From assembly GCA_963823665.1 (NCBI GenBank), contig CAWGMQ010000010.1, positions 288,001-352,000 on the forward strand: DNA of 64,000 bases. The letters run 5' to 3'. The translations under genes were made by a program, and so were the position numbers. The notes below the pieces were generated by a model. The model saw only the letters and a list, made by a program, of their open reading frames with translations, was not told the DNA's origin and made no database searches. Source of the stretch: an uncultured Planctomycetota bacterium (GTDB lineage: Bacteria; Planctomycetota; Planctomycetia; Isosphaerales; Isosphaeraceae). This document shows, in pieces, positions 8,400 to 33,044 of this stretch (the stretch's first letter is position 1; each line of letters opens with the position of its first letter).

Positions 8400-8566
8400 A
8401 TTGTCGGGAGTCGACATGAGACAACCGACCCGCGGCTCCCGGAGATGATCTGAATTTGTCGGATGACTGGACGAAGGGCAGCTCGGCAATCCCGGGTGGT
8501 CCGTCGAAAAGTAAGCCGGCGTGGTCGAGGACCTTGAGGGTTCTCGACCACGCCGGCTTTTTTTTT
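8400..8566 (+). ncRNA. Candidate cis-regulatory attenuator leader, copy A
   Basis: 5' hairpin GGGAG..CTCCC, conserved core GTCGGATGACTGGACGAAGGGCA..GTCCGTCGAAAAGTAAGCCGGC, ends in terminator. Confidence 0.8.
8515..8566 (+). terminator. Intrinsic terminator inside leader A
   Basis: 19-bp stem 8515-8533/8539-8557 followed by T9. Confidence 0.9.
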
Positions 8567-8706
8567 CGCTCGCGCTGACTTCGCTCGGCCGCTATTCGCC
8601 AACCACTGACCTGAACGACCGGCCCGGTACAGCAAACGCGCAACTGCTCACTGGTCTCCGCGTCAACAACTGCTAATTTCACCAAAGTTTAGCAAGGAGG
8701 AATCAG

Positions 8707-9246
8707 ATGATGTCAGAAAAGAACTCGGTCGTCGCGATCTTCGAGTCGCACGGGCGGGCCGAAGACGCGATCCGCGAACTACAGCGAAGCGGCTTCGACA
8801 TGAAGAAGCTGTCGATCATCGGTAAGGATTACCACACGGAGGAGAACGTCGTCGGCTACTACACGACCGGCGAGCGCATGAAGTACTGGGGCAAGCTGGG
8901 AGCCTTCTGGGGCGGCTTCTGGGGGATTCTGTTCGGTTCAGCATTCTTCTGGCTGCCCGGCATCGGGACGGTGCTCGTGGCTGGTCCGCTCGTGGTCTGG
9001 ATCGTTGGCGCGCTCGAGAGCGCCGCGGTGATGGGCGGGCTCAGCGCCATGGGTGCCGCACTGTACAGCATCGGCATCCCGGAGGACAGTATCCTTCGAT
9101 ACGAAACACACGTGAAGAACGGCAAACTCCTCTTGCTCGTCCATGGGACGCCCGAGGAAGTGGAACGCGCCAAGAACCTCCTGGATCGGTCCGACGCAAA
9201 TTCAACGACGGTCCATGGCGAACAACTGGCCACCGCTGGCGCGTAA
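8707..9246 (+). CDS. General stress membrane protein (DUF1269/YflT-like)
   Basis: AAGGAGG SD; LSIIGKDYHTEE, Gly-rich TM hairpin with PGIG..AGP; paralog at 35241. Confidence 0.75.
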   Translation: MMSEKNSVVAIFESHGRAEDAIRELQRSGFDMKKLSIIGKDYHTEENVVGYYTTGERMKYWGKLGAFWGGFWGILFGSAFFWLPGIGTVLVAGPLVVWIVGALESAAVMGGLSAMGAALYSIGIPEDSILRYETHVKNGKLLLLVHGTPEEVERAKNLLDRSDANSTTVHGEQLATAGA

Positions 9247-9330
9247 CTCAAGGAAATCCGTGCAACACAAAGTTCCGGTCGGCCGCCGACCGGAACGTTA
9301 CACAGAAACATTCTCACGGGGAGGAACGAA

Positions 9331-10167
9331 GTGAGTTATGTAGAACGCTTCAGAGTGCCTCCCAGCACCACCGTCAAGCTTGCAGACATCGACCCGAGTT
9401 TCAAAAACCATCACGAGGGCCACAAGGAGGCGGCCAAGGAGATCGAGCACTACCGGCTGAGGCTGAGAGAACTGCAAGAGTTGCTCTATGCCGATGGACG
9501 GCGATCGCTCCTCATCTGCCTCCAAGCGCTCGACGCAGGGGGCAAGGACGGGACGATCGAACATATCCTGGGTTCGATGAATCCGCAAGGCTGCAAAGTG
9601 GTGGGGTTCAAGCAGCCTTCCGCCTTGGAGTGTGCGCATGATTTCCTGTGGCGAATCCATCGTGCCGTGCCTGCCCGTGGTGAAGTGGTCATCTTCAACC
9701 GTTCACATTACGAGGACGTCTTGATCGCTCGCGTTCATCACCTGGTCCCACATGAGATTTGGGCCCGCCGTTACGATCGAATCAATGCCTTCGAGAGTGG
9801 CCTCGTTGAGGACGGCACGGGCATTCTCAAGTTCTACCTCCATATCTCGAAACGCGAGCAACTGAAACGCTTCAAGGATCGGCTCGACGACCCTGCCAAG
9901 CAATGGAAGATCAGCGAGGCCGATTACAAGGAGCGAACCTGCTGGGGCGACTACACGGCGGCTTACGAAGATGCGCTCGCCCGTTGCAGCACCGAGCATG
10001 CCCCGTGGTTCATTATCCCTTCCGACCACAAGTGGTTCAGGAACCTCGCCGTGGCTCGGATCGTCGTGGAGCACCTGGAAGCGCTGAAGATGACATTCCC
10101 GCCTCCTTCGGTGGACATCGAGCACATTCGCAAGGAATATCACGCAGCGAAGAAGCATAGCCACTGA
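9331..10167 (+). CDS. ppk2: Polyphosphate kinase 2 family protein
   Basis: Walker A ALDAGGKDG, HDFLWR, FNRSHYE, WKIS..D, HKWFRN. Confidence 0.9.
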   Translation: MSYVERFRVPPSTTVKLADIDPSFKNHHEGHKEAAKEIEHYRLRLRELQELLYADGRRSLLICLQALDAGGKDGTIEHILGSMNPQGCKVVGFKQPSALECAHDFLWRIHRAVPARGEVVIFNRSHYEDVLIARVHHLVPHEIWARRYDRINAFESGLVEDGTGILKFYLHISKREQLKRFKDRLDDPAKQWKISEADYKERTCWGDYTAAYEDALARCSTEHAPWFIIPSDHKWFRNLAVARIVVEHLEALKMTFPPPSVDIEHIRKEYHAAKKHSH

Positions 10168-10235
10168 CCTGGAAGGCAGCGTTTCGAGAGAATGCGCCCG
10201 CGGCGGATTTGCGATGCTTGAAGCGGAGACACGAA

Positions 10236-11225
10236 ATGATCAGAGTGCCCATGTATCCGTTGCGATTCGAACCGATTTACCAGTATCGGCTCTGGGGCGG
10301 CCGGCGTTTGGCCTCGTTGCTGAAGGCGCCCCTCCCCGGCGACGGACCCATCGGCGAAGCCTGGCTGCTCTCCGACCGCGATGACCATCTCAGCACGGTC
10401 GCCGACGGACCGCTCAAAGGATCGACCATCCGGCAATTGATGGAGCAGTCGCCGGAGCAGTTGCTGGGAAATTTGGCGGGGCGATTCCGACGGTTCCCGG
10501 TGCTCCTCAAATTCCTCGACGCACACGACAAGCTCTCGGTTCAGGTGCATCCCCAGGATGAGCAGACCGACTATATCCCAGCCGGCGAGAGCGGCAAGAC
10601 CGAAGCATGGGTCGTGCTCGACGTGGCAAGGGACAGTTGTATCTACGCGGGCCTGAAGCGAGGCACCACTCAAGGTGATCTCGACCGAGCGCTCAAAAAC
10701 CGGGCGGTGGCGGACCTTCTGGCAGGCTTCACGCCGACGGTCGGCGACGCCGTCCTCGTCCGAGCTGGGACCGTTCACTCTCTCTCTGACGTGGTGGTTT
10801 TCGAAGTGCAGGAAAATAGCGACGTCACATTTCGCCTGTACGACTGGGATCGAACTGATCCCAAGACAGGCAAGCCTCGACCGTTGCAGGTCGAGCAGGC
10901 GGTTGCCTGCATCGATTTCGACCAGGTCGCGATAGGTCCGCTCAAGCCGGTGGTCGAGCAGGCGGCGCCGGTCCGGCGCGAGCGACTCTTTCAGTGTGAG
11001 CATTTCTCGGTGTGGCGGCACTCGGGACAGTCGCCGTTCACAGTCGGCGCGGCGAGCACGCCACGCGTGCTGGTTTGTCTCGCCGGCGAAGGGGAGCTCG
11101 AGCACGGCGGCGCCGATTATCCCCTCGGCCGCGGCGACGTCGTGCTCTTGCCGGCGGAGGTCGGCGCATGTTCCTGCCGGCCGCGCAATGCCGTCAGCCT
11201 GCTGGAGGTCGCGCTGCCGGAATAG
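10236..11225 (+). CDS. manA: Class I mannose-6-phosphate isomerase (cupin)
   Basis: LWGG, IGEAW, LSVQVHP, GKTEAW, GTVH, EVQENSDVTFRLYDW. Confidence 0.88.
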   Translation: MIRVPMYPLRFEPIYQYRLWGGRRLASLLKAPLPGDGPIGEAWLLSDRDDHLSTVADGPLKGSTIRQLMEQSPEQLLGNLAGRFRRFPVLLKFLDAHDKLSVQVHPQDEQTDYIPAGESGKTEAWVVLDVARDSCIYAGLKRGTTQGDLDRALKNRAVADLLAGFTPTVGDAVLVRAGTVHSLSDVVVFEVQENSDVTFRLYDWDRTDPKTGKPRPLQVEQAVACIDFDQVAIGPLKPVVEQAAPVRRERLFQCEHFSVWRHSGQSPFTVGAASTPRVLVCLAGEGELEHGGADYPLGRGDVVLLPAEVGACSCRPRNAVSLLEVALPE

Positions 11226-11243
11226 TTCCGCGCGGAGGGCACA

Positions 11244-11987
11244 ATGAAAAAGCTCGTGGTTTTCGACCTGGACGGAACCCTTGCCCAGAGCAAGTCATCG
11301 ATCGATGCCGAGATGGCAGCATTATTTGATAAGCTGCTCGTGATCATCAAAGTTTCTGTGATATCCGGTGGTAACTGGCCGCAATTTCAAAAACAGGTGC
11401 TTTCTCACCTTGCCAGTGACCAGCGATTGAAGAATCTTTCTCTCCTGCCTACTTGTGGAACACAGTTCTACAAATACGAAAGTGATTGGACTCGGATTTA
11501 CGCGGAGGATTTTACCCCTGAACAGAAAGAGAAGATTATCAGCTCACTCAAGAAAGCGATCGAGCAATCGGGCCTGAAGGCCGAAAAGGTCTGGGGCGAG
11601 GTGATCGAAGACCGGGGAAGTCAAATCACCTTTTCCGCGTTAGGTCAAGAAGCGCCGCTCGAAGAAAAGGTGAAATGGGACCCTGAGTTCGCCAAGCGGA
11701 AGAAGATGAAAGGTTTTCTTGACACGTTGATCCCGGAATTTGCAGTCCGCCTCGGTGGGTCGACGTCCATTGACGTCACGAAGCCGGGCATCGACAAAGC
11801 ATACGGGATCAGAAAGTTGCGAGACATTCTTGGCATTGCCATCGAAGAGATGATCTTTGTCGGCGATGCCTTGTTTCCCGGCGGCAACGACTATCCGGCC
11901 GAGCAAGCCGGTGTTGTTTCGATCCGGGTCAAGGATCCGCATGAGACGAAACGCGTTATCGAAACAATCATCGCTTGTCTGGGTTGA
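11244..11987 (+). CDS. HAD-IIB hydrolase, eukaryotic-type phosphomannomutase
   Basis: FDLDGT, EDRGSQITFSALG, GGSTSID, GD...GGND. Confidence 0.8.
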   Translation: MKKLVVFDLDGTLAQSKSSIDAEMAALFDKLLVIIKVSVISGGNWPQFQKQVLSHLASDQRLKNLSLLPTCGTQFYKYESDWTRIYAEDFTPEQKEKIISSLKKAIEQSGLKAEKVWGEVIEDRGSQITFSALGQEAPLEEKVKWDPEFAKRKKMKGFLDTLIPEFAVRLGGSTSIDVTKPGIDKAYGIRKLRDILGIAIEEMIFVGDALFPGGNDYPAEQAGVVSIRVKDPHETKRVIETIIACLG

Positions 11988-12020
11988 GTCCGGCCGAGCG
12001 AGACCTTGTGAGGGGAGCTA

Positions 12021-13211
12021 ATGGCAGGATTCCAAATGAAGCGACTCGGGATGCTGATGGAGCCCGAGCCGGGAAATGCCCTGGAGGTCGAAGGCGTCTT
12101 GAACCCGGCGGGGATTCGCGGCCCTGACGGTCAATTTTACCTTTTCCCTCGCCTGGTCGCGAAGGGGAATTTCTCGCGCATCGGCATCGCACGCGTGAAG
12201 TTCAATGAGGCCGGCGATCCGATGGGCGTTGAGCGCCTGGGCATCGCGCTCGAGCCCCAAACCGATTACGAGCTGCGGCCTGACGGCAGCGGAGGCTGTG
12301 AGGATCCGCGAATTACTTTTGGCGAAGACATCAAACGCTACGTCATGACTTACACGGCGCTTTCGCCCGAAGGCCCACGGATTGCCCTGGCCCTATCCGA
12401 GGACCTGTTCCACTGGCAGCGTTTGGGGCTGGCGACCTTCCGCCCGTATGAGGGCATCGAGTTCGACGGTGTGGACAACAAGGATGCCAGCATCTTCCCA
12501 GTGGCCATTCGCGATCCTGAAGGGAAGCCGGCAATGGCCATACTCCACAGGCCACTCTTTCCCGGAACTCGTCCTGAGGAAACGGTCTCTCAACCGGCGT
12601 CCCGCGCGGTTGATCCGCAGCGAGAGAGCATCTGGATTTCCTACTGTCCACTGGGCAGGGTTGACGATCTTCCGTATCACCTCAGCCATTTTACTCTGCA
12701 TAACCGGTTGGCCAGCCCGGTGGCGCCCTGGGAGCAGCTCAAGATCGGCGGCGGCACTCCTCCCGTCCTGACCCGGCACGGATGGATGGTTATCTACCAC
12801 GGCGTCCGCACACTGGCGGGCTCGACCACGGCAGCGCGCAAGTTATGTTACTCCGCCGGTGTGATGGTGCTCTCCAAAGAGCTTCCCCGTTTGATTCGTT
12901 ATCGCTCGCCTGAACCGGTGCTGACGCCGGAATTGCCGCAGGAATGCATCGGGACCGTTGCCCACGTCGTGTTTCCGACCGCCATCGACCGGCGCGATGA
13001 TCTCGGCCTGCCCGATCGATTCGACGTTTATTACGGGATGGCCGACAACCGGATCGGAGTGGCGCGTCTCGACGTGCCGAAGACCTTGCCCCCAGGGGGA
13101 CTCGCCGACCCGCCCCGAGCCAATCGCTCAATTCCCATCGATCGTCAATCCAAGACGGAGAGTCGCGAACGCGTCCCGGTCAACACTAAAGGAGGTTCCT
13201 CGCCAACATGA
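12021..13211 (+). CDS. GH130 glycosidase/beta-mannoside phosphorylase
   Basis: [39 protein letters not shown]. Confidence 0.82.
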
Positions 13212-15252
13212 CTTACTCAGCCACCATCGCTCCGCCGGAACTGGACGAGCTCTGTGTCAATACGCTGCGCTTCCTGGCGGTGGACGCCGTGCAGAAAGCC
13301 AAGTCCGGCCACCCCGGCCTGCCTCTGGGTTCCTCGGCGATGGCTTATGCACTCTGGGATCGCTTTCTCAAGTTCAACCCGTGTGATCCCATCTGGCCCG
13401 ACCGCGATCGCTTTGTTCTCTCGGCCGGCCATGGATGTGCGCTCTTGTACGCGCTGCTTCATGTCACGGGCTTCGATTTGCCGCTGGCGGAGCTCGAGAG
13501 GTTCCGCCAGTGGGGAAGCCGTACCCCAGGCCATCCGGAATATGGAAAGACGGAAGGCGTCGAGGCCACCACCGGTCCCTTGGGGCAAGGCCTGGCCAAC
13601 GCCGTCGGCATGGCCATCGCCGAGGTCGCTCTTGCAGCGCGCTTCAATCGACCTCGTCACCAAATCGTGGACCACTACACTTACGTTTTGGCCAGCGATG
13701 GCGATCTGGAGGAAGGGATATCTTCCGAGGCTGGATCAGAAGCCGGTCACCTGCGGCTTGGCAAGCTCATCGTCCTCTATGCCGACAACCACATCACGAT
13801 CGAGGGCAGCACGAAGCTCGCCTTTACCGAAGACCGTTCGGCCCGTTTCGCCGCGTTCGGCTGGCATGTCCAGCGGGTCGAAGCCAGCAACGACGTTGAC
13901 GCGATCGCTGCCGCGATCGAGGCTGCCAGGGAAGAGACGGGTCGGCCGTCCTTGATTCAGGTTCGCACCCACATCGGCTTCGGCAGCCCCCACAAGCAAG
14001 ACACCGCTGCGGCCCACGGCGAGCCACTCGGCCTGGAAGAAGTTCGTCTGACCAAAGAGGCGCTGGGCTGGCCGGTCGAACCTCCCTTCCATATTCCCGA
14101 GGAGGCCCTGGATCATTTCCGGGAAGCAGTCGCGCGGGGAGCACTGCGCACGCGGAATGGAAGTTACGTCTCGAACTTTATGCGGAGGAACACCCCGACC
14201 TCGCCGCAGAGTTCGAGCGGGTCACGCTTCGGCAACTTTCGAGCGGCTGGGATGCCGACCTCCCGACATTCACCTCAGGCGAAGGCCCAATGGCAACCCG
14301 CATCGCTTCGGGAAAGACGATCGCGGCTCTGGGCTCTCGTCTTCCCGAGTTGATGGGAGGCTCGGCCGATCTTGCTCCCAGCACCCATACGAACATGGAC
14401 GGGGCCGGCAGCTTCGAGCCTGAGACCCGATCGGGACGCAACATGCACTTCGGCATCCGGGAGCATGCCATGGGCGCCATTCTGAACGGTATGGCGCTCC
14501 ACCGCGGCCTCATCCCGTATGGAGCAACCTTCCTGATCTTCAGCGATTATATGCGTCCGCCGATGCGCTTAGCGGCCATGAACGGCCTGCCGGTGATCTA
14601 TGTCTTCACCCACGACAGCATCGCCATGGGAGAGGACGGCCCAACCCATCAGCCTGTCGAACATTTGCTGGGACTCAGATCCATCCCCGGCATGGTTGTC
14701 ATCCGGCCGGCCGATGCGAACGAGACGGTTGCCGCCTGGCGTGTCGCGATCGAGCACAGAGAAGGTCCGGTCGCCCTGGTGCTCACGCGCCAGGGACTCC
14801 CCGTGCTCGAAATTGCCCGATATCCGGGCGTACCCGCTGGAGTGCCCCTGGGTGGCTATGTCCTCGTGGACTCTCCTGCCAGTTGTTTACCCGATATCAT
14901 TCTGATTGCGACCGGTTCCGAAGTGCATCTCGCGCTCGAGAGCCGTGAACGGTTGGCGACCGAGGGCGTCCAGGCCAGGGTGGTGAGTCTGCCGAGCACC
15001 AACCTCTTCTCGATGCAGTCGGAGAAATATCGGAACAAGGTCTTGCCCCCGGGCGTGCCCCTCTTGGCCATCGAGGCCGGTGCGTCCCTCGGCTGGAAAT
15101 CCTATGTCGGTCCCCAGATCGCCGTGATCGGCGTGGACACCTTCGGGGCATCAGCCCCCGGGCCAGTCGTGATGCAGCATTATGGCTTCACAGTCGAGAA
15201 TGTCTGCAACCAAACCCATAACTTGCTCGGCCAAGTCAAGGAGAAACGGTGA
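13208..15252 (+). CDS. tkt: Transketolase (frameshift near 14145)
   Basis: [20 protein letters not shown]; then [23 protein letters not shown] in second frame. Confidence 0.9.
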
Positions 15253-15698
15253 TGCGCGTGGGAATTGCCGCGGACCATGGAGGGTTTGCTCTCAAGGTAG
15301 AGATGGCTGAGGCCCTTCGGACCGCCGGGCATGAAGTCGTCGATTTCGGCGCACGCATCCTGACTTCGGGGGATGACTACCCCGATTACGTTGTACCCCT
15401 GGCTCTGTCGGTGGCAGAGGAGAAAGTCGAACGTGGCGTGGCCTTTTGCGGGAGTGGCGTGGGAGCGTCCGTCGCCGCCAACAAGGTGCCCGGCGTTCGT
15501 GCCGGTCTGATCCACGACGTTTACTCGGCGCACCAGGGAGTCGAAGACGACAACATGAACATGCTTTGCATGGGTGGACGGGTAATCGGCCCGGCGCTGG
15601 CGTGGGAACTCGTCCAGGCGTTCGTGGCCGCCCGCTTCAGCGGAGCCGAACGCCACCAGCGCCGTTTGGCGAAGGTGGCGGCCCTGGAGAACGACTGA
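15252..15698 (+). CDS. rpiB: Ribose-5-phosphate isomerase B
   Basis: DHGG, DYPD, CGSGVG, ANKV, RHQRR. Confidence 0.92.
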   Translation: MRVGIAADHGGFALKVEMAEALRTAGHEVVDFGARILTSGDDYPDYVVPLALSVAEEKVERGVAFCGSGVGASVAANKVPGVRAGLIHDVYSAHQGVEDDNMNMLCMGGRVIGPALAWELVQAFVAARFSGAERHQRRLAKVAALEND

Positions 15699-15743
15699 GG
15701 AGAATATCGCCGTGGAAGCGCAGATGCGGTCCCGGACGCGAAG

Positions 15744-16064: not shown

Positions 16065-16439
16065 TCAGCGCTTGGCTTGGTGGCAAGGGGGTGGCTCGGC
16101 CAGCGTCACGACAACAAACGCTTCGCCGGTTACCGTGCTGATGTCGTGGTGCAGACTGACCACCTTGACGTCGGTGACATCCTGGACCATCGCTTGTATG
16201 AGCGGCTTCGCCGTTTCGATCAGTTGGGTCCGTATTTGCTTGAGCAAATCCCTCCCCCTATCGGATGGGAATTTGGCAAGGTGCTGTTCGGCGGGTGTCA
16301 ACATGCCCTGAAGCCGGACGACGATGAAATCCCCGAGCAGGAAGGCGCGAATGTTTTTGGGGCCTCGGCCCCTGTATTCCTGCTCAAAGCGACTCATCAC
16401 GTCGCAGATGGCGGCCTCGATTTCTCCTTGGGTTTTCAT
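16065..16439 (-). CDS. DUF2294 (MpsC/YbcI-family) protein
   Basis: KTQGEIEAAI, GRGP, RLQGMLTPAEQ.L, LHHDISTVTGE; 4-nt overlap with upstream kinase. Confidence 0.85.
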   Translation of the reverse strand: MKTQGEIEAAICDVMSRFEQEYRGRGPKNIRAFLLGDFIVVRLQGMLTPAEQHLAKFPSDRGRDLLKQIRTQLIETAKPLIQAMVQDVTDVKVVSLHHDISTVTGEAFVVVTLAEPPPCHQAKR

Positions 16440-18406
16440 CGTGCCGGCAACTCCGAGACGGTCGCCAAGATTTGCAGCACCTTCCCGAAATCGCCCGGCT
16501 TGACCAGGTGGTGATCGAACCCCGCATCGAACGAACGCTGAAGGTCGCTCACCCCTCCGTACCCGGTCATGGCGACAAGCACAGCATTCTGGAGAGCGGG
16601 CTGCTGACGTATCTGCTTCGCGACCTCAAAGCCATTGAGCCCCGGCAAGCCGATGTCGAGCAGCACCACGTTCGGCCGGTAATCGAGGGCCGCTTCCAGG
16701 ACGGCTGAGCCGTCGTAAGCCATCCTGACATCGTGGCCGGATTCATTCACCAGCAATGCCAGGGTCGTCACGGTATCCACGTTGTCATCCACAACCAGCA
16801 CGCGCAAGGATTGTCCGCTCGATTGGGCCGACTGGGGAGACGGCGATGCCGGCTGCTGCTGGGGAGGTGACACCACCGGCAGACGCACGACGAACTCGCT
16901 GCCTTGCCCCAAAACGCTAGTTGCCGCCACCGTTCCACCGTGCATTTCCACGAGGCGCTGCACCAAAGCCAGTCCGATGCCCAACCCACCTTGCGAGCGG
17001 TCCAGGGACCGTTCCCCCTGGGTGAACAGGTCGAAGATGCGGGGCAGTGTTTCGGGGGCGATGCCGACGCCCGTATCCCGCACACGCAGCACCGCCTCCG
17101 TGCCCTCTTGTTGCAACGTCAACCAAACGTGACCGCCTCGCTCCGTGTACTTGGCGGCATTGGTCAGCAGGTTCACCATCACTTGTTCCAACCGGGCAGC
17201 GTCGGCGTTTAGCCAGATCGCTTGCGCGGGCAGCGACACGGTGAGTTCATGCTTGCGCAGGTCGATCAGCGACCGGACGGTCGCAACCGCGTGTTCCACG
17301 ACGACGCCCACGGCAATCGGTTCTTGATGAAGCTGAATCCTTCCGGTGGTAATGCGAGAGACTTCGAGTAGTTCATCAACGATCTGCGTCAGTTGTCCGA
17401 CCTGACGCTCAATGATGCTGGCGGATTGCTGAAGTATTGGGTTCTCGATACCGTGCAGTCGATTCCGATTGCTGTGCAGGCGCAGGAGAAGAGCGGCATT
17501 GAGGATGGGGGCAAGGGGGTTGCGAAGTTCATGGCTGAGCATCGCCAGGAACTCATCTTTGCGGCGGTCCAGGTCGGCGAGTGCCGCTGCCTGCTCCTGG
17601 GTCAGTCGCTGCAAGCGTCTGCGTTCGGTGATGTCGCGGATGTTGCATTGAACGACCTGGTGTTGGTTCTCCGCATAGACGTTGCTGACGAACTCGACCT
17701 CGACGTTTTGGCCACTTCTGTTCTCGAGGGGCAGGTTTTCATAGCGGACGTAGCCCGTCTTTTGCAGTTCCCGGTAGGCGGCCTGGCTCTCTTCGATATG
17801 GCGGAACAGACCGATCTCCCAGAGTTCCTTGCCCAGGAACTCATCGTGCGAGAAGCCCAGCAAGGTCGTCATGAACGGGTTGGCGTCGATCACCTTACCC
17901 GTGAGTGCGTCGAGGATGAGGATGCCGTCCTTGGCCATCTGGAACAGCCGCCGATACCGGACTTCGGAGTGCGCCATGGCGGCGTCCGTCTGCCGGCGAG
18001 CAGTAACGTCCTCGATGGCTAGAAGGACCAATTCCGGCTCGTTGCTCTCCGGCGGGAACCTGCGGGCGTTAAGCAGCATTGTCCTTTGCCCGAGAGTCGG
18101 GAAGGTGTGTTCAACCTCGACGTCTTCAATGGGATGGCTGTTGGAAAGAACTTGGGGCAGCAACGTCCGCAGTTGGGGGATGTCCCACTGACCGTTGCCC
18201 AGGTCATAGACGAAGCGGCCCTCCGTGTCCTCTTTCGAGGCATGGAAATCCCGGTAGAACGCGCCGTTGGCGGTGCGTACCCGCAGGCTCTTGTCGAGAA
18301 CCACGAACGGCTCTCTCAGGGTCGCGATGATGTTTTCAGCGTACGCAAGGGCGAGCTGCAGTTCTGTTGTGCGCTTGTCAACGTTCGTTTCCATGCCGTT
18401 TCCCAT
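16436..18406 (-). CDS. Cytoplasmic PAS-PAS hybrid histidine kinase/receiver
   Basis: Two PAS domains, H-box LSHELRNPL, NLLTNAAKY, DTGVGI, GLGIGL, REC VVDD..LLDIGLP. Confidence 0.9.
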   Translation of the reverse strand: MGNGMETNVDKRTTELQLALAYAENIIATLREPFVVLDKSLRVRTANGAFYRDFHASKEDTEGRFVYDLGNGQWDIPQLRTLLPQVLSNSHPIEDVEVEHTFPTLGQRTMLLNARRFPPESNEPELVLLAIEDVTARRQTDAAMAHSEVRYRRLFQMAKDGILILDALTGKVIDANPFMTTLLGFSHDEFLGKELWEIGLFRHIEESQAAYRELQKTGYVRYENLPLENRSGQNVEVEFVSNVYAENQHQVVQCNIRDITERRRLQRLTQEQAAALADLDRRKDEFLAMLSHELRNPLAPILNAALLLRLHSNRNRLHGIENPILQQSASIIERQVGQLTQIVDELLEVSRITTGRIQLHQEPIAVGVVVEHAVATVRSLIDLRKHELTVSLPAQAIWLNADAARLEQVMVNLLTNAAKYTERGGHVWLTLQQEGTEAVLRVRDTGVGIAPETLPRIFDLFTQGERSLDRSQGGLGIGLALVQRLVEMHGGTVAATSVLGQGSEFVVRLPVVSPPQQQPASPSPQSAQSSGQSLRVLVVDDNVDTVTTLALLVNESGHDVRMAYDGSAVLEAALDYRPNVVLLDIGLPGLNGFEVAKQIRQQPALQNAVLVAMTGYGGVSDLQRSFDAGFDHHLVKPGDFGKVLQILATVSELPAR

Positions 18407-20633: not shown

Positions 20634-20646
20634 CACTGGCCCCCCA

Positions 20647-25100: not shown

Positions 25101-25541
25101 GACGTCGCTCTCGAACACCAGGTAGCCGACCGGGACGGAGCCTGAGTCCATCCGCATGATCATCGGCGGCAAGGTCCCCTTGGGCATCCACGACATCGCC
25201 CGGTCGGACATCGCCACGACCTGGGCCATCGCCTGGCCCATGTCGGTCCCGGGGAAGAACGAGAGCTCGCACAAGGCCACCTGCTGGATGTTCCGCGTAT
25301 TGATATCCTTGATGCCATCGACGTACTGGAAATACAACTCGAGCTCATTGACGATGAAGCCCTCCATCTGGTCGGGGCTCATGCCGATGTAATCGAGGAA
25401 GACGTAAATCTTCGGGACGTTCAGCGAGGGGAAGATATCCACCCGCATCCTGGTGAAGCCCAGAAGGCCACCGCTGATCAGGGCCACGACCAGCATCATG
25501 ATCGTGATCGGGCGCCGCATCGCGAATGAAGTCGGGTTCAT
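22194..25541 (-). CDS. RND efflux permease 1
   Basis: 1115 aa; INIMSLGG, GILVDM, RMRPILMT, PLGRAVIGG. Confidence 0.92.
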   Translation of the reverse strand: MNPTSFAMRRPITIMMLVVALISGGLLGFTRMRVDIFPSLNVPKIYVFLDYIGMSPDQMEGFIVNELELYFQYVDGIKDINTRNIQQVALCELSFFPGTDMGQAMAQVVAMSDRAMSWMPKGTLPPMIMRMDSGSVPVGYLVFESDVTSLGAMGDLANNVIRPLVQKNVPGTVAISPFGPNMRSIVVNVDPHKLLDYNLTPQQVIDALATGNTVIPAGNVYIHDSMPMVANNATVGDIQKLGDIPLRMERNVYLRDVATIQDYVDITYGYALVNGKNAVYLPVIKKDTGSTLTVVADVHKSMKMFRDAVPKDVSINFEFDESPAVVAAVESVATEGLIGAGLTGLMIFLFLGDLRSMLVVVATIPLALMGSFVGLWLTGNTINIMSLGGMALSIGILVDMSTVNIENLHVQMGQTPKIARAVLGAANATAVPILLALLCILSVFTPALIMKDPLRSLFMPLTLAVGFAMISAYLLTIMLVPILCVHMVKNKGHGKKRGLFDRFLDAYTKVVTWLVRLRWLVVPGYLGACGLILWLVGLQVGTELFPQIDSGEFVLRFRPPPGSNFELTRQMAIKCLEEIEREATPEHMKITMGYVGQVATNFGIDNMVLFMRGPDDGQLRIALTEDSGIKLDEFRERLRKVLPKRVIPWLAKRLEQGGLAKEEAEKQAALSTFGFEPGDMVTKVMSFGSLTPIAVRIVGTDLKLVRQHAEKIATNMRRIPFLRDVEFVQSLDYPTVEVTIDREKAGLSGAKVSDVAHAIVMATASTRFASLNYWIDEKTGFDYLVQLQIPPLRIDKPEGIETLPLESINPLVNLMIRDVATVERGVRPGEIDRDMSQRYLTLTANVEGEDMGRASRQVAQALAAVGDPPRGVRVETMGQLPPMDEMFESLGIGLGVAVFVILVLLTAYFQSLRLALISISAVPGVLAGIAIILYVTNTSLNIESFMGSIMSLGVSVSNSVMLVAFTNDHWKAGNRSAQAAVLGASERMRPILMTACAMTTGMVPMALALERGSQMQAPLGRAVIGGLVMSTVATLLIVPSIFAIVIGKKKAVSSSIHPDDPDSEHFVPPAAAGQSMSDDEDAADSALSQPQTDEHRRSPDGGHSPGPALFSPGGP

Positions 25542-28500
25542 TTCCCATCCCTCCCGTCCTGGCTGTCAAGGTCGGTGTGCGGCTGAAACGAACCTGAATC
25601 GAAAGCGTCCTCTTCGTCGGAGGTGCTCTCGGCGCCGGCGGCCGGCGGGTCGTAGTGGGTACTATCGGGATCGTCCGGATGAATCGACGGCGAGACGGCC
25701 TTCTTCTTGCCGATCACGATCGCAAAGATTGACGGGACAATTAGCAAGGTGGCCACCGTCGACATCACCAACCCGCCGATCACCGCGCGGCCGAGCGGGG
25801 CCTGCATCTGGCTCCCGCGCTCCAAGGCCAGCGCCATCGGCACCATGCCGATGGTCATAGCGCAGGCCGTCATCAAGATCGGCCGCATACGCTCGCTGGC
25901 ACCGATTACGGCCGCCTCCGCTGCCGGCTTTCCGGCCTTCCAATGTTCGTCGATAAACGTCACGAGCATCACCGAGTTCGAGACCGAGACGCCCAGGCTC
26001 ATGATCGAGCCCATGAACGACTCGATATTGAGTGAGGTATTGCTGAAGTAGAGGATGGTCGCGATGCCCGCCAAGACCCCGGGCACCGCTCCAATCGATA
26101 TCAAGGCCAGGCGCGGCGATTGGAAGTAAGCCGTCAAGAGCACGAGGATCACGAACACGGCGACTCCTAGCCCGATCCCGAGCGACTCGAACATCTCGTT
26201 CATCGGCGGGAGCTGGCCCATGGTCTCGACCCGCACGCCGCGGGGCGGATCACCGACGGCGGCGAGCGCCTGGGCGACCTGCCGCGACGCCCGGCCCATG
26301 TCCTCGCCCTCGACATTCGCGGTCAGCGTCAGGTAGCGCTGTGACATGTCGCGGTCGATCTCGCCGGGCCGCACGCCCCTCTCGACCGTGGCCACATCGC
26401 GGATCATCAGGTTGACGAGCGGGTTGATCGATTCCACCGGCAAGGTTTCGATGTCTTCCGGCTTGTCGATCCGCGATGGCGGTATCTGGAGCTGCACCAG
26501 GTAGTCGAAACCCGTCTTCTCGTCAATCCAGTAGTTGAGCGAGGCGAAGCGGGTCGACGCCGTCGCCATGACGATGGCATGGGCCACGTCCGAGACCTTG
26601 GCTCCGGAGAGCCCCGCCTTTTCGCGGTCGATGGTGACCTCGATCGTCGGGTAGTCGAGCGACTGCACGAACTCGACGTCGCGGAGGAACGGGATGTGCC
26701 TCATGTTGGTCGCGATCTTTTCTGCGTGCTGCCGCACCAGCTTCAAATCGGTGCCGACAATCCGGACCGCGATCGGCGTCAGCGAGCCGAAGCTCATGAC
26801 CTTGGTCACCATATCACCCGGCTCGAAACCGAAGGTCGACAACTTCGCTTGCTTTTCCGCCTCCTCCTCGGCCAGGCCACCCTGCTCGAGCCGCTTGGCC
26901 ATCCAGGGAATCACTCGCTTGGGCAGGACCTCGCGCAGCCGCTCGCGGAATTGGTCGAGTTTGATCCCGCTGTCCTCCGTGAGCGCGATCCGCAACTGGC
27001 CGTCGTCGGGCCCGCGCATGAAGAGCACCATGTTGTCGATGCCGAAATTCGGGGCAACCTGGCCGACGTAGCCCATCGTGATCTTGATATGCTCGGGCGT
27101 TGCCTCTCGCTCGATCTCCTCCAAGCACTTGATCGCCATCTGGCGCGTCAACTCGAAATTCGAGCCGGGCGGCGGCCGGAACCGCAGCACGAATTCCCCC
27201 GAATCGATCTGCGGGAACAGCTCGGTGCCGACCTGCAAGCCCAGCACCCAGAGCACCAGGCCGCACGCCGCAAGATAGGCTGGCACGGTCAGCCATCGCA
27301 GCCGGACGAACCAGCCTACCGCCCTTCCGTAGACCTTGAGGGCCCGGTCGAATAGCCCGGGCTTCTTCTCGCCATGGCCCCCGTGGTGCTTCAGCAGGGC
27401 CACGCTCATGATCGGCACGAACATGCTCGAGAGCAGGTACGACGAGATCATTGCAAACCCGACGCCCAAGGTCAGCGGCATGAACAGCGACCGGAGCGGG
27501 TCGGTCATGATGAAGGCCGGGATGAACACCGACAGGATGCAGAGCAGCGCCAGGAGACGCGGCACGGCCGTGGCGTTGCTCGCGCAGCATCGCCATTGCG
27601 ACGTTCGGCGCGTGCTCCATCTGGACGTGCGTGTTCTCGATCGTCACCGTCGCCTCGTCGACCAGGATGCCGATCGACAGCGCCATGCCGCCCAGTGACA
27701 TGATGTTGATCGTGTTGCCCGTCAGCCATAGCCCGACCAACGACCCCATGAGCGCCAGCGGAATGTTGGCCACCACGACGAGCACGCTCCTCAGATCGCC
27801 GAGGAACAACAGGATCATTAGCCCCGTCAATCCCGCGCCAATCATGCCCTCGGTGGCCACGCTCTCAACCGCTGCCACCACGGTTGGCGACTCGTCGAAC
27901 TCGAAGTTGATCGAGACGTTCTTGGGAACGGCGTCGCGGAACAACTGCATCGACTTATGGACGTCGGCCACCACGGTCAACGTCGATCCCGTGTCTTTCT
28001 TGATGATCGGCAGATAGACCGCGTTCTTGCCGTTCACGAGCGCGTATCCATACGTGATATCGACATAGTCCTGGATAGTCGCCACGTCGCGGAGGTAGAC
28101 GTTCCTCTCCATCCGGAGCGGAATATCGCCCAGCTTCTGGATGTCGCCCACCGTCGCGTTGTTGGCGACCATGGGCATCGAGTCGTTGATGTAGACGTTC
28201 CCCGCGGGGATGACGGTGTTCCCTGTCGCCAGGGCATCAATGACTTGCTGCGGCGTCAGGTTGTAGTCGAGGAGCTTGTGCGGGTCGACGTTGACGACGA
28301 TCGACCGCATGTTCGGTCCAAACGGCGAGATCGCCACCGTGCCGGGGACGTTCTTTTGCACCAGCGGCCGGATGACGTTATTGGCCAGGTCCCCCATCGC
28401 CCCCAGCGAGGTGACGTCGCTCTCGAACACCAGGTAGCCGACCGGGACGGAGCCTGAGTCCATCCGCATGATCATCGGCGGCAAGGTCCCCTTGGGCATC

Positions 28501-28853
28501 CACGACATCGCCCGGTCGGACATCGCCACGACCTGGGCCATTGCCTGGCCCATGTCGGTCCCGGGGAAGAACGAGAGCTCGCACAGGGCCACCTGCTGAA
28601 TGTTCCGTGTATTGATATCCTTGATGCCATCAACGTACTGGAAATACAACTCGAGCTCATTGACGATGAAGCCCTCCATCTGGTCGGGGCTCATGCCGAT
28701 GTAATCGAGGAAGACGTAAATCTTCGGGACGTTCAGCGACGGGAAGATATCCACACGCATCCGGTTGAGGCCCAGAAGGCCGCCGCTGATCAGGGCCACG
28801 ACCAGCATCAGGGTCGTGACTGGGCGCCTCATGGCGAAGCCGGTCGGATTCAC
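25538..28853 (-). CDS. RND efflux permease 2 (frameshift near 27582)
   Basis: GTG start with GGAG SD; near-identical to permease 1; 2 nt missing in a (CG)n run at LR[A]SNATAVP. Confidence 0.88.
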
Positions 28854-28888
28854 AGTCCACACTCCCTGTCTGCTGCGCGACCGCGGCA

Positions 28889-29926
28889 TTATTCTTCAGG
28901 ACGGCTCGGTCCTTCGTCTGTCGGGTTGCCTGCTTTGCTCCCGCCCCTCGAGGAGGTGGGCGCGGCGGACCCGGCTAGAGGGGTGAGACCGGGGATCCGA
29001 TCGCCATTCGAGTGAGCTTGCGCCGCGTCGAGGCGCTCCCGCAGAGTCTTGAGCTCCTCCTTGAGGGCCTCCAGTTGATTGTCGAACTGTCGGTGTGCCG
29101 CCGGCAGCGCGGCGACTTCAGCCATCGCATGAGTCAGCTCGCTCAGCTTTATCTGCATTTTTCGCAGCGCCGGCGGCGTCGCGTCGGTGGGCAGTGTTAC
29201 ACCGTCCACTCGCTCGCGCAAGTGGTCGACCCGGCGCGACAGGTCCGTGATTAGCTGCTTGAGCATATCCGCGTCTTTGGCCGGCGAGACGCCGGGAATC
29301 GAGTTCTTGGTCGATGCCTGCGCGTTCGATCCCTTGCCCGACTCCTTACTTTCCGCACTGCCGGACTTCTTTTCAGGGCCCGAATCCTTCGTCGAGCCCG
29401 AATCGCTCTTGCCCTGCGACTCTTTCGACTTGGGTCCCGCGGACTTCGGCCCGAAAAAGTACGAGTAGCCCATCGCGCCGATCACACCGCAGGCCAAGGC
29501 GACGCCAGCCGTGATCAGAAGATTCTTCATCATCGAAGGCTGCTGTTGCCGAGATCCGTCTTCGCGAAGGTGTTCTTGATCCTGCACTCGATCTGCGTCA
29601 TGCTGGCGAGCCTGCTGACCGCCTCGATTCTTACTGTGGCCGTTCTGGTCCTGAGGGCGGTCTTGAGAATTGCCCTGTTCCTTGTGAGCGAAGACCGTCC
29701 GGACTCCCGTGGCGCCGAGCAGGTCCGACTCGCTCACCTGGGTCGTCTCGACGCTGATGGTGGCGTCCGGGTTAAGCTTCCGGTCTGACGGGTGCTCGAC
29801 CACCTTGTCAATAACCGGATCAGCGGTGTCGATGGTGATCGGCGCTGGGTCCTCGTCAGGAAGCTTGCCCGCCTGTGAGTGCTCGTCAACCCGGTGGGAT
29901 TCGTCGGTCGAATTGGATTTGTCCAT
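28889..29926 (-). CDS. Single-TM hypothetical protein with disordered N-terminus and coiled coil
   Basis: ATG at 29926 after GAGGG SD; TM LLITAGVALACGVIGAMGY; heptad-like C-terminal part. Confidence 0.7.
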   Translation of the reverse strand: MDKSNSTDESHRVDEHSQAGKLPDEDPAPITIDTADPVIDKVVEHPSDRKLNPDATISVETTQVSESDLLGATGVRTVFAHKEQGNSQDRPQDQNGHSKNRGGQQARQHDADRVQDQEHLREDGSRQQQPSMMKNLLITAGVALACGVIGAMGYSYFFGPKSAGPKSKESQGKSDSGSTKDSGPEKKSGSAESKESGKGSNAQASTKNSIPGVSPAKDADMLKQLITDLSRRVDHLRERVDGVTLPTDATPPALRKMQIKLSELTHAMAEVAALPAAHRQFDNQLEALKEELKTLRERLDAAQAHSNGDRIPGLTPLAGSAAPTSSRGGSKAGNPTDEGPSRPEE

Positions 29927-29966
29927 CGGTTCGTCCCTCGTGAGTGTCACCACCCGTCGCCGACGC

Positions 29967-30130
29967 AAACAAAAAACCGGCGTGGCGGAACACCCTGAGG
30001 TATTCGACCACGCCGGCTTACTCGTCAACGGGCCCCCCGGCAAAGCCGGAGTGCCCTTTATCTAGTCGTCCGACGAAATCAGCTCATGTCTTGGTGGGAT
30101 CTGCCTGCTCGCTCGCGCAGGCTATCCATT
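29967..30130 (-). ncRNA. Candidate attenuator leader, copy B (with terminator)
   Basis: Sense GTCGGACGACTAGATAAAGGGCA..GGCCCGTTGACGAGTAAGCCGGC; stem followed by T6GTTT. Confidence 0.8.
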
Positions 30131-30138
30131 CGGTCTCC

Positions 30139-30195
30139 ATTGTCCTATTTGGAGCGTAAATAGCAAGGCCATTGTTGCTATTTCTCACATGAAAA
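30139..30195 (-). promoter_or_regulatory. Promoter TTGCTA-N16-GACAAT plus upstream TTTTCATGTGAGAAATA box
   Basis: Both elements identical in copy C (32609-32665) while the spacers diverge. Confidence 0.6.
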
Positions 30196-30598
30196 TCTTC
30201 AGACTCTTCGGGTAGTCGCGCATGCGGGCATGAGCTTTCTCGCCGGCCTTTTCGTCGGCGAGGGCAAGTTCGAGCAGACCAGAGACAATCTCGATCTGGA
30301 GCGATGGTTTCGCTTGCCCAAGAGTCACGAGCGGCGAATCCACGGTCATCCCCACGCGGGCATTCGAATCGTTCTCCGCAGGCATCGTCGGCCAGGCCGA
30401 TCGGGAATCCCGTCGAATCTCCCGATCGAGCGTCTCGCATCGACAAATCAAATTATTCTAAATATTTTTTGCGTAGAATCTGCATATTCATTACTTTGGG
30501 CGTGGGAATCGCGTGAGAAGCAAGCTGCGGTCCAGAACGCGACGGGGGGATTTCCCCCTTCGGAATTGTTCCGCGGGTTCACAACACGGAGTGCAGCG

Positions 30599-31354: not shown

Positions 31355-31408
31355 TCGAGCGGAAAAGGGGGACGGCTGGCAACCCCGCCGTCCGACGGCA
31401 CGAGCACG

Positions 31409-32299
31409 CTACCGGCCGTTCCCTCTCGCCGTTACCGGAGTTGTTTCGACTCCCGCGATCTTCTCGGATTGGGCCGGCTCCGTCATTGTCGGGGATGCGT
31501 CCGCGGGCCGCCCATCAACCTCGGCACCCGCGCCGTCCCGGTGATGCTTCAGGAATGGCCCCAACAGTTCCAGCGGCAACGGGAAGATAATAGTGGAATT
31601 CTGATCTGAGGCCACGTCCGCGAGAGCTTGGAGGTAGCGCATCTGCATCGCCATGGGATAGGGAGTCATGATCTGGGCGGCTTGCCGGAGTTTGTCGGCG
31701 GCCTGGAACTCCCCCTCGGCGTTGATAACCTTGGCGCGCCGTTCGCGTTCGGCCTCGGCCTGCCGCGCCATCGACCGCTTCATCGCCTCGGGGAGGTCCA
31801 CGTCCTTGACTTCCACGACGGAGACCTTCACCCCCCACGGCTCGGTGTGCCCATCGATGATCTCTTGCAAGCGGCGGTTCACTTTCTCCCGCTCAGTCAA
31901 GAGGTCATCGAGCTCCGCCTGACCCAGCGTGCTGCGCAATGTAGTCAAGGCCACCTGGGAGGTGGCGAACAAGAAATCGGCCACTTCCAAGACCGATCGC
32001 ATCGGATCGACGACCCGGAAATAGAGCACGGCGTTGACACGGACCGAGACGTTATCCCGGGTGATGATGTCCTGAGGCTCGATGACTCTGGTGATGGTCC
32101 GCAAGTCGACGCGCATCATGCGATCGATCGGCCAGAAGACCATGATCAGACCCGGTCCCTTGGGCTCGGGAATGACCCGGCCCAGTCGGAAGACAACCCC
32201 GCGCTCGTATTCGTTCAGGACGCGAATGCAGGAAAACAGGTACAGGGCGGCCAATGCGAGGACGCTCCCCAAGGCCATTGCGGTCTCGATGATCAACAT
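31409..32299 (-). CDS. SPFH/stomatin (slipin) family protein
   Basis: [43 protein letters not shown]. Confidence 0.9.
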
Positions 32300-32437
32300 G
32301 GCTGAACCTCCCAAAAATGGAATCTGATGCGCAATTGCTCGCAAGCGCCGGCCGCTTCGGCGATGTGTTGCGCCCGGGCAGAACTCGATTTGTCCATCGG
32401 TTCGTTCCTCGTAAGTGTGATCGTCTTCGGTCCACGC

Positions 32438-32600
32438 AAAAAAAACCGGCGTGGTCGAAGACCCTGAGGTATTCGACCACGCCGGCTTACTCGTCAACGG
32501 GCCCCCCGGCAAAGCCGCAGTGCCCTTTATCTAGTCGCCCGACGAAATCCGCTTATGTTTTGCTGGGATTTGCCCGCTCGCTCACGCAGGCTATCCATAT
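32438..32600 (-). ncRNA. Candidate attenuator leader, copy C (with terminator)
   Basis: Same core as copy B; stem followed by T8. Confidence 0.8.
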
Positions 32601-32608
32601 CGAAGGCC

Positions 32609-32665
32609 ATTGTCCTACCTTGGGGGTAAATAGCAAGGGAGGTTTTTGTATTTCTCACATGAAAA
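32609..32665 (-). promoter_or_regulatory. Promoter TTGCTA-N16-GACAAT plus TTTTCATGTGAGAAATA box
   Basis: Matches 30139-30195. Confidence 0.6.
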
Positions 32666-32832
32666 GCTCCAGATTGATTGGTGATTATCGATTCAGTCTC
32701 GATCGTGATCGCTCGCACGCACTGGGTGCGGCCGCCGATCAACTAGGCAGACGCGCTCAAAGTCGCAGTGCGAATGTTGCGTCGGTCAACATTCCCGGTG
32801 GCGATCCGGTGTCAACGTTTCCGGCCAGCAAA

Positions 32833-32872
32833 AGGAATAGACTTGCTTTCCTCTCGACGGAGCGCCTACCAT
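32833..32872 (+). promoter_or_regulatory. Sigma70-like promoter of leader D
   Basis: AGGAATAGAC-TTGCTT-N18-TACCAT, matching copy A. Confidence 0.65.
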
Positions 32873-32881
32873 GACGAGTAA

Positions 32882-33044
32882 TGTGCGGGAGTGAGGATGG
32901 CACAGCCGCCCGTCGGCTCCCGGGAATGATTTGAATCTGTCGGATGGCTAGACGAAGGGCAGGCCCGGTACTCCGGGTGGCCCGTCGAAGAGTAAGCCGG
33001 CTTGATCGAGGACCTCAGGGTTCTCGATCAAGCCGGTTTTTTTT
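32882..33044 (+). ncRNA. Candidate attenuator leader, copy D (with terminator)
   Basis: GTCGGATGGCTAGACGAAGGGCA..GGCCCGTCGAAGAGTAAGCCGGC; stem with compensatory changes versus A; T8. Confidence 0.8.

Follow-up and report, generated by a model that had tools for sequence, protein, structure and literature searches.

Transcriptional ON riboswitches such as the adenine switches pbuE/ydhL are organized around a shared strand, in that the 3′ strand of the P1 helix is also the 5′ strand of the terminator. Here we analyse a leader RNA of related design that occurs in four copies within a 64,000-nt stretch of DNA (the window; positions 288,001-352,000 of contig CAWGMQ010000010.1, assembly GCA_963823665.1) from an uncultured Isosphaeraceae bacterium. 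Like the adenine-type switches it is a 5′ leader with a compact conserved aptamer-like hairpin, invariant nucleotides in junctions and loops, covarying stems, a proposed short closing helix that shares a strand with the terminator, and a terminator that is the default. It differs from them in that the closing helix is without covariation support, the terminator is fixed, and the genes that follow form a stress rather than a metabolic regulon. The leader is genuine: it is conserved, acts in cis, recurs many times per genome, always carries an intrinsic terminator, and heads a general-stress regulon in planctomycetes.

The c-di-GMP-I (GEMM-I) and c-di-AMP (ydaO) riboswitches are present in many copies per genome and control heterogeneous regulons. 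The new leader is similar in having tens of copies per genome, in preceding diverse genes with a shared physiological theme, and in regulating signalling proteins. It is unlike these second-messenger riboswitches in being a single bulged hairpin that has no match in Rfam, and nothing indicates a nucleotide ligand.

A second kind of relative is the ribonucleic antiterminator (RAT), and the original prediction likened the leader to the RAT elements bound by BglG and LicT. As a type of mechanism the analogy holds, since in both cases a hairpin with an internal loop overlaps the 5′ arm of the terminator, so that the two folds would be exclusive, and the terminator is always attached. It does not extend to the components. 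The RAT hairpin is about half the size of the ~63-nt leader hairpin, the targets of the leader are not sugar phosphotransferase system (PTS) operons, and the CAT RNA-binding domain (PF03123) gave no match in the genome that carries the window (91.9% complete), while a control search was positive in 4 of 14 reference genomes. HPr-like genes do occur among the targets (one in the 108 further first genes surveyed below and one in the genome itself), with no PTS permeases.

The general stress regulons of sigma-B, EcfG and RpoS are defined by the promoter alone. The leader regulon has in common with them CsbD, YflT, Dps, BON/OsmY-like, DUF1328/YtjA-like and transglycosylase-associated YmgE-like proteins, glucose-6-phosphate dehydrogenase (G6PD), and a module of PP2C with an anti-sigma antagonist, but nearly every leader operon additionally carries a structured leader with a terminator. 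We know of no general stress regulon in which a structured leader provides a second layer of this kind.

A scan of the whole window against Rfam 15 gave no match at gathering thresholds, and the original prediction had likewise not recognised the leader as a known riboswitch class. In a permissive scan of copy 1 nothing but chance rows below threshold appeared, the highest of them (mir-341) reaching 24 bits where 90 are required, and six loci with divergent members of the family gave nothing at the element, the only matches being to tmRNA and tRNA elsewhere in those loci. The motifs of the 2017 survey by Weinberg are reportedly included in Rfam. No description of the leader motif was found in the open-access full-text literature, which does not include the 2017 survey. 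The only planctomycete cis-regulatory candidate that this literature turned up is the Rhodopirellula-1 motif (Weinberg et al. 2010, PMC2864571). In the alignment given there (AACAA..CG.GAU..GAAC ... GUUAUC..CGUU) it has neither the consensus nor the architecture of the leader, and is a different motif.

A structured leader RNA with an attached terminator

Covariance-model matches of 118-128 bits were obtained at all four of the sites originally proposed, the model matches spanning 8450-8571 (+), 29962-30082 (-), 32431-32551 (-) and 32931-33051 (+). Each copy has the parts ascribed to it, i.e. the 5′ and 3′ consensus sequences, an apical stem that varies in sequence yet still pairs, a GC-rich stem of ~19-20 bp and a run of six to nine U. 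The four align over the whole unit plus about 110 nt upstream, and fall into two subtypes, with one upstream region common to copies 1 and 4 and another common to copies 2 and 3. The folding energy of copy 1 is -66 kcal/mol, compared with -38.6 ± 3.8 kcal/mol for shuffled sequences (z = -7.3; 0 of 200 shuffles equalled it), and at copies 1 and 4 a terminator scan called a stem of 20 pairs with a T run behind it. The elements of the four copies are as follows.

8361..8390, + strand: putative promoter box of copy 1 (TTGCTT 8361-8366, 18-nt spacer, TACCAT 8385-8390)
8405..8442, + strand: variable 5′ hairpin of copy 1 (CGGGAG...CUCCCG), seen in the sequence between promoter box and core
8458..8520, + strand: bulged hairpin of copy 1, the candidate sensor domain (GUCGG 8458-8462 with CCGGC 8516-8520; 80.3 bits with the aptamer-only model)
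8513..8566, + strand: intrinsic terminator of copy 1 (20-pair stem, 14 GC, U9 run), the 5′ base of which is the CCGGC of the hairpin
30139..30166, - strand: promoter-like box of copy 2 (TTGCTA 30166-30161, 16-nt spacer, GACAAT 30144-30139)
30012..30074, - strand: bulged hairpin of copy 2 (GUCGG 30074-30070, CCGGC 30016-30012; 127.9 bits with the full model, 87.5 bits with the aptamer-only model)
29967..30019, - strand: terminator and U run of copy 2, from sequence, fold and covariation
32609..32636, - strand: promoter-like box of copy 3 (TTGCTA 32636-32631, GACAAT 32614-32609)
32438..32543, - strand: hairpin and terminator of copy 3 (GUCGG 32543-32539; U8 run 32445-32438; 120.1 bits)
32843..32872, + strand: promoter-like box of copy 4 (TTGCTT 32843-32848, 18-nt spacer, TACCAT 32867-32872)
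32939..33044, + strand: hairpin and terminator of copy 4 (GUCGG 32939-32943, CCGGC 32997-33001, stem 32994-33039, then the U run; 117.8 bits)

The fold is one long bulged hairpin with a variable apical loop of 3-8 nt. In copy 1 the proposed GUCGG/CCGGC helix (P1) encloses ACU/AGU, a 3-bp helix, GGGC/GYCC and finally the apical stem. The hairpin is ~63 nt in length and the whole element roughly 110 bases, with a near-invariant core in which UCGGAYGACU lies opposite AGUAAGCCGR. The structure was analysed using 150 model-aligned copies, comprising 148 distinct sequences, and positions are given below as columns of that alignment. The most conserved nucleotides (U10-A14, G16-U19, A26-A27, G30-A32, G78-U79 and A86-G94) belong to a pair of internal loops rich in purines and to the short helices that adjoin these. 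Conservation peaks at the unpaired and loop positions flanking P1 and P2, and the apical stem is variable, a riboswitch-like pattern.

Covariation in three helices bears out the claim that this is a structured RNA. The hairpin is paired in 96.2% of cells, compared with 24-49% when the 3′ partners are slid (148 sequences); because the aligning model itself incorporates the structure, paired percentages are somewhat inflated, but compensated changes are not created by the fitting. Such changes are found in 14 of the 20 pairs of the hairpin, and 0 of 500 shuffles attained any of the measures observed. They occur in six of seven pairs of helix 24-31/74-81 and in all five pairs of helix 34-38/63-69; the ACU/AGU helix is almost invariant. 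The covariation noted between the terminators of individual copies (GUGGUC/GACCAC versus UUGAUC/GAUCAA) extends to the whole family, with compensated changes in 16 of 19 pairs (11 of 14 in the lower stem and 5 of 5 in the upper); pair 95-150, for example, is A-U in 73 and G-C in 63 sequences.

One detail of the fold needs to be altered. The aligned sequences favour YRA/UYR with a single bulged A over the register originally drawn, GAY/GUY and a 3-nt RAA bulge. Pair 25-80 of the favoured register is A-U in 55, G-U in 48 and G-C in 33 sequences and never A-C, whereas the earlier pair 22-80 includes six A-C mismatches. Pair 24-81 is U-A in 32 sequences and C-A in only one.

The family is considerably larger than the four copies first reported. 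With copy 1 as query, blastn locates 20 copies of full length in the genome (16.46 Mb in 12 contigs), and a covariance model of the hairpin alone finds 26, of which 14 lie in a 40-kb island (C10:2.42-2.46 Mb). The terminator accompanies every aptamer-only match, either as part of a full-length match or following it; this holds for all 26 matches in this genome, for all 12 in a further five genomes and for all three from other classes. Among 61 related genomes the full-length model matches in 23, strongly in 20 (E < 1e-15) and weakly in three (G010, G022 and G036); note that the counts per genome, up to 43-45, include reverse-strand matches to the palindromic terminator. Nine families of the class were sampled, and five of them have matches. 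In an even sample across the phylum the leader was present in 5 of 151 genomes, three of these belonging to other classes and having a single copy. When one genome from each of 185,579 species was scanned with a sequence pattern, 28 loci were obtained, of which all except four carry a Planctomycetota label (Planctomycetaceae, Pirellulales, Planctomycetia, Phycisphaerae and Tepidisphaeraceae). The four from other phyla (Chromatiaceae, Patulibacter, Dehalococcoidia and Desulfobulbia metagenome-assembled genomes) have no covariance-model match at E <= 1e-9 and are taken as chance matches, about 12 of which had been estimated beforehand.

Genomic position and the downstream stress genes

The leader was expected to show the orientation bias of a 5′ leader, and this is observed. 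With a simple codon-usage gene caller, 126 of 150 copies are followed by a gene on the same strand and 19 by one on the opposite strand, and five have no next gene; on the upstream side the corresponding numbers are 73, 69 and 8. At least two of the 19 opposite cases arise because the caller missed genes lying directly downstream on the same strand, i.e. an HPr gene and a 143-aa open reading frame (ORF). A median of 92 nt separates the leader from the called start of the gene, and several starts with a Shine-Dalgarno sequence lie only 30-45 nt past the U run; this leaves no space for a separate promoter, so that these genes would be expressed only by read-through.

A family with this many copies per genome might be a repeat of the miniature inverted-repeat transposable element (MITE) or repetitive extragenic palindromic (REP) kind, or a chance palindrome without RNA function, and the terminator palindrome does score on the opposite strand as well. 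The original prediction named a lack of orientation bias as the signature of such an element. The bias is strong, however, and the compensatory changes are strand-specific and include G-U pairs. Moreover, the leader is conserved across families and classes at orthologous positions beside MpsC genes, with flanks that are unshared except for the promoter. The element is not a MITE or REP, and an origin of this kind is extremely improbable.

The original prediction had not noted a regulon. Its nature was examined beyond the window using Pfam with 108 further first downstream ORFs. These comprise 17 MpsC, eight DUF3309, seven CsbD, seven histidine kinases, five Band_7, four YflT, three BON, three ice-binding-like, and two each of ferritin/Dps, C92 amidase, methyltransferase, SnoaL and KaiC; 25 are without a Pfam family. 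The singletons include G6PD, a desaturase, a ribosome hibernation factor, a SpoIIAA-like protein, PAS-PP2C, a sigma-70-family protein and MscS-BON. Elsewhere in the genome that carries the window, the first genes encode HPr, an amidohydrolase, BON, a methyltransferase, MpsC, DUF3309, a transglycosylase-associated protein, a desaturase, DUF1328, BrkB, CsrA, a hybrid kinase and a sigma-54 activator. As judged from these families, the downstream set is one of general stress, dormancy or osmoprotection, with a content resembling that of the sigma-B, RpoS and EcfG regulons. The leader is a precise marker of stress operons in metagenome-assembled genomes, and it gives a physiological context to DUF2294/MpsC, DUF3309, DUF1328 and DUF2934.

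In the window the four copies are followed by these genes.

8707..9246, + strand: YflT-type general stress protein (Pfam scan), the first gene after copy 1
continuing to 15698, + strand: remainder of the copy 1 operon, with PPK2, mannose-6-P isomerase, PMM/HAD, GH130, split transketolase and RpiB
28889..29926, - strand: first gene after copy 2, 345 aa with no Pfam family, its ATG ~40 nt past the U run
down to 16065, - strand: remainder of the copy 2 operon, with RND pump genes, two HlyD-type genes, YflT, a PAS hybrid histidine kinase and an MpsC-A-like gene
16065..16439, - strand: the MpsC-A-like (DUF2294) gene, last in the copy 2 operon and adjoining the PAS hybrid histidine kinase (16436-18406)
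31409..32299, - strand: SPFH/Band 7 gene after copy 3, preceded by a 34-codon ORF
33067..35013, + strand: genes after copy 4, BON (33067-33582) and glucose-6-phosphate dehydrogenase (33616-35013), then YflT and a triple-BON protein

The original prediction set each copy behind a promoter. A conserved promoter-like box is indeed present upstream of most copies, although a generic sigma-70 scan calls none there. The box was found in 144 of 148 upstream regions, most of which carry CTTGCT(A/T)-N16-18-(G/C/T)A(C/T)(A/C)AT, often after an A/T-rich stretch. Its conservation suggests that it is the promoter. It lies a median of 56 nt before the start of the model, and only 6-9 nt before it in about ten copies. 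The interval between box and core holds a hairpin of variable sequence in both leader subtypes; this is missing where the -10 box is 6-9 nt from the core, as in locus L027.

Short ORFs are present in the 5′ part of copies 1, 2 and 4, and leader-peptide attenuation was considered as a mechanism. It was rejected, as the ORFs are missing in the close paralogues L002 and L003, where the bases matching them form both arms of the 5′ hairpin.

In some type-B copies sequence is shared past the terminator, through the Shine-Dalgarno sequence and into the first codons (ACGAGGGACGAACCGAUGGA(C/A)AA); this is seen at 29924-29960 (-) and 32386-32425 (-) in the window, and at L017 and L110:2688. The 34-codon ORF that precedes the SPFH gene after copy 3 is accounted for by this sharing. 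From the sequences it looks as if whole cassettes of promoter, leader and 5′ end of the gene have been duplicated before new genes.

Such duplication raises the question of whether the leader senses anything at all. It might be part of a duplicated cassette with a promoter and a leaky terminator, giving a fixed low level of read-through or stabilizing the 5′ end, with regulation at the promoter by a stress sigma factor; in a variant of this, a weak P1 would respond to temperature or ionic strength. The promoter box is as conserved as the RNA, some copies share sequence into the first codons, and the regulon includes a sigma factor and a partner-switching module, all as expected for such a cassette, and the presence of cold and desiccation genes (desaturase and ice-binding-like) would suit the physical variant. 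A mere attenuator, on the other hand, would have no need of internal loops that are invariant across classes of the phylum together with covarying stems, nor would it explain why the aptamer-like hairpin is kept when the distance from promoter to core and the downstream gene both differ. We consider this explanation very improbable.

Proposed competition between P1 and the terminator

The hairpin and terminator had been proposed to be mutually exclusive. The sequence CCGRC (columns 92-96) does form the base of the terminator and is also the strand proposed as the 3′ side of P1; its pairing with GUCGG (columns 9-13) is compatible with the aligned sequences rather than proven by them, and is the weakest link in the proposed switch. 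P1 is paired in 95.9% of cells and nearly invariant. Pair 11-94 is C-G in 139 sequences, U-G in seven and U-A in one, and pair 10-95 is U-G in 71 and U-A in 70, so that an A/G polymorphism is tolerated within P1 and is compensated by the terminator on the other side. An additional pair (8-97) forms in 111 of 150 copies.

In a thermodynamic model, RNA extending as far as column 97 forms P1 in 143 of 150 copies, while the full RNA forms the base of the terminator in 142 and P1 in just one. The predicted advantage of the terminator fits the proposal that the switch is OFF by default. The state having P1 plus a truncated upper hairpin is a median of 7.8 kcal/mol less stable, so that an effector would have to contribute ~7.8 kcal/mol or else act kinetically.

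We envisage the following mechanism. Transcription would start at the conserved TTGCT(A/T)-N16-18-nAcAAT box and, after the optional 5′ hairpin, the polymerase would make the 63-nt bulged hairpin closed by P1, i.e. (G)UCGG/CCGR(C). In the default state the emerging 3′ arm of the terminator would pull CCGRC out of P1, and transcription would stop at the U run. An effector that stabilized P1 and the core by roughly 8 kcal/mol would block the bottom 5-6 pairs of the terminator, those adjoining the U run, allowing read-through into the stress operon. As effector we would first suspect a small molecule or ion that signals stress, with a dedicated RNA-binding protein nearly as likely. Conditional antitermination by an effector of some kind is the probable function of the leader. 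The specific form that we favour, tentatively, is a small-ligand riboswitch, i.e. a new ON class that would gate the general-stress regulon by attenuation in cis.

A number of observations weigh against such a ligand-dependent switch. Two of the five pairs of P1 (12-93 and 13-92) never vary, or nearly so, and the outermost one, 9-96, fails to form in 23 of the 148 sequences. Where position 96 is U, position 9 pairs with it in 6 of 12 cases, while its terminator partner (149) compensates in all 12. U10 is kept in 142 of 148 sequences, though C would pair more strongly. The 5′ GUCGG may thus be conserved for a reason other than pairing in P1, and an alternative mini-hairpin GUC-GGAY-GAC can be drawn for which the three pairs form in 122, 142 and 148 of the 148 sequences. 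Riboswitch classes are generally known to vary their expression platforms. The terminator of the leader is fixed and conserved in sequence on every copy, which is unusual for riboswitches and suits protein antiterminators and small RNAs (sRNAs) equally, and among the regulated genes there are none of biosynthesis or transport that point to a metabolite. The gene calls used for orientation come from our own crude codon-usage caller. Lastly, in Logan contigs from four soil metatranscriptome runs (from relatives), which hold small portions of the stretch, YflT genes have high depth and the leader (8435-8582) low depth, the non-conserved spacer is uncovered, and one 162-nt contig extends ~80 nt past the U run into unlike sequence; these contigs reveal neither ends, strand nor levels, and so have no bearing on termination or conditional read-through.

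The mini-hairpin is of interest for another function, in which the terminated transcripts of ~170 nt would themselves act in trans as an sRNA family, or the leader would have both functions, and read-through would be incidental. They might base-pair through a single-stranded GUCGGAYGACUAGA, or titrate a protein such as CsrA through GGA. sRNAs typically consist of a structured 5′ domain and, behind it, a strong terminator ending in a U tail, GUCGGAYGACU is largely unpaired in the minimum-energy fold, and multicopy sRNA families exist elsewhere. The near-invariant GGA can occupy the 4-nt loop of the GUC/GAC mini-hairpin, and the genome has ten CsrA paralogues, an unusually large number, one of which lies directly downstream of a leader copy (C5:1203638-1203811). 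From the sequence, a CsrA-type interaction through this invariant GGA is possible, if weakly supported. Sponges such as CsrB and RsmZ are independent genes with many GGA motifs in hairpin loops; by contrast, the leader has one conserved GGA (columns 12-14), perhaps placed in a 4-nt loop, and its copies are not independent genes. An independent gene would not be expected to face the next gene in 126 of 150 cases with a random upstream neighbour, nor to lie 30-45 nt from the next start codon, and the coherent stress regulon downstream argues for control in cis. A role as sRNA is accordingly improbable.

If the leader does sense a ligand, as we favour, it would represent an orphan class of riboswitch whose regulon per genome is among the largest known and, to our knowledge, the first master control of the general stress response at the level of RNA, in a phylum in which gene regulation is almost unexplored. 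The leader is small enough (~63 nt plus the terminator) for direct biochemical screening of ligands.

MpsC genes and candidate protein effectors

A gene tightly linked to the leader is MpsC (PF10057). All 20 genomes in which the leader match is strong have it, as do 5 of the 41 others. It splits into a leader-controlled MpsC-B and a highly conserved MpsC-A, with ~26% identity between them and 68-90% identity within MpsC-A across families. In most loci, including one in a genome of another class, the MpsC-A gene is divergent from a leader copy at a distance of 175-300 nt; the loci were fetched around leader copies, so that the frequency of this arrangement is biased and its fixed geometry is not. 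At the locus from the other class the gene controlled by the leader is of DUF2934 type by eye, the name coming from no Pfam call. MpsC-A genes were also observed at L109:13703-14089, L110:11277-13631 and, in the window, 16065-18406 (-), either divergent at ~215 nt from a leader or beside PAS hybrid histidine kinases.

A search with the MpsC-A sequence found no relative in the PDB. Its AlphaFold model (pLDDT 87.5) has weak Foldseek matches to Bet3/TRAPP, YslB and H-NOX (best E 0.014, TM 0.44), and by our count from the sequence acidic residues outnumber basic. MpsC-A was considered as an RNA-binding antiterminator and rejected on these grounds, i.e. no relative in the PDB, weak matches to ligand-binding folds and an acidic composition; it is retained only as a linked gene. 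The model suggests that MpsC-A and the PAS hybrid kinase could form a sensor-kinase pair like that of H-NOX and its histidine kinase. MpsC-A is possibly the core of an ancestral module, acting as sensor partner of the adjacent hybrid kinases.

Control by a protein would require a stress-active RNA-binding protein that clamps P1 and the invariant internal-loop core, so keeping the terminator base from forming, as in antitermination of the RAT/BglG, PyrR or HutP type; the anatomy would be that of the ligand-dependent switch, with a different effector. The obligate, sequence-conserved terminator of every copy is as found in RAT/terminator pairs, and the purine-rich internal loops (AYG opposite AAG) are a type of feature often read by proteins. 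The regulon also contains many signalling proteins (hybrid kinases, PAS-PP2C, SpoIIAA-like and HPr), and the association with a conserved MpsC-A points in the same direction. Against this, no candidate RNA-binding protein was found. The genome has no CAT_RBD, MpsC-A is acidic and weakly resembles folds that bind small molecules rather than any known RNA binder, and the co-occurrence of MpsC may merely reflect common membership of the stress islands. Two ANTAR proteins are encoded, unlinked to the leader islands. The target of ANTAR proteins is two short hairpins in tandem with hexanucleotide loops, the second of which overlaps the terminator, unlike the single long bulged hairpin of the leader. 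We regard protein-dependent antitermination as unlikely; were it to apply, it would constitute a new antiterminator system, together with a ready list of the planctomycete stress regulon.

Returning to the small-ligand riboswitch, a fuller account can be proposed in which the new class senses a stress signal (a second messenger or alarmone, or an ion or osmolyte), with one module placed before 20-40 operons and so gating the whole general stress regulon in large-genome soil Planctomycetota. The divergent pair of MpsC-A with leader and MpsC-B would be ancestral, and the H-NOX/V4R-like MpsC may sense the same signal. Taken as a whole, this account is doubtful.

Some further features of the loci may be noted. 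In the copy 1 operon (9331-15698 (+)) the YflT gene is joined with those for polyphosphate kinase 2, mannose-phosphate enzymes, a GH130 phosphorylase, transketolase and RpiB. Taken with the G6PD gene behind copy 4, this gene content suggests a stress-induced rerouting into the pentose-phosphate pathway, and possibly the synthesis of a mannose-based compatible solute. In the copy 2 operon the gene for an AcrB-type resistance-nodulation-division (RND) pump (25538-28889 (-)) consists of two overlapping ORFs, of which 26817-28889 corresponds to profile positions 3-415 and 25541-27565 to positions 642-1020, which points to a split gene, a frameshift or an error in the assembly.

The 40-kb stress island (C10:2422000-2462000, loci L109 and L110), with its 14 leader copies, contains genes for Dps, DUF3309, desaturase, ice-binding-like and MMPL proteins, hybrid kinases, PAS-PP2C, a LuxR-type response regulator and a Crp-like regulator. 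Relatives have comparable islands, e.g. G012:C40, G030:C13 and G033:C5. In genome G053 a tmRNA gene (L045:363-724 (+)) is found ~140 nt past the end of an MpsC-A gene (832-1206, -), the latter being oriented away from a leader copy.

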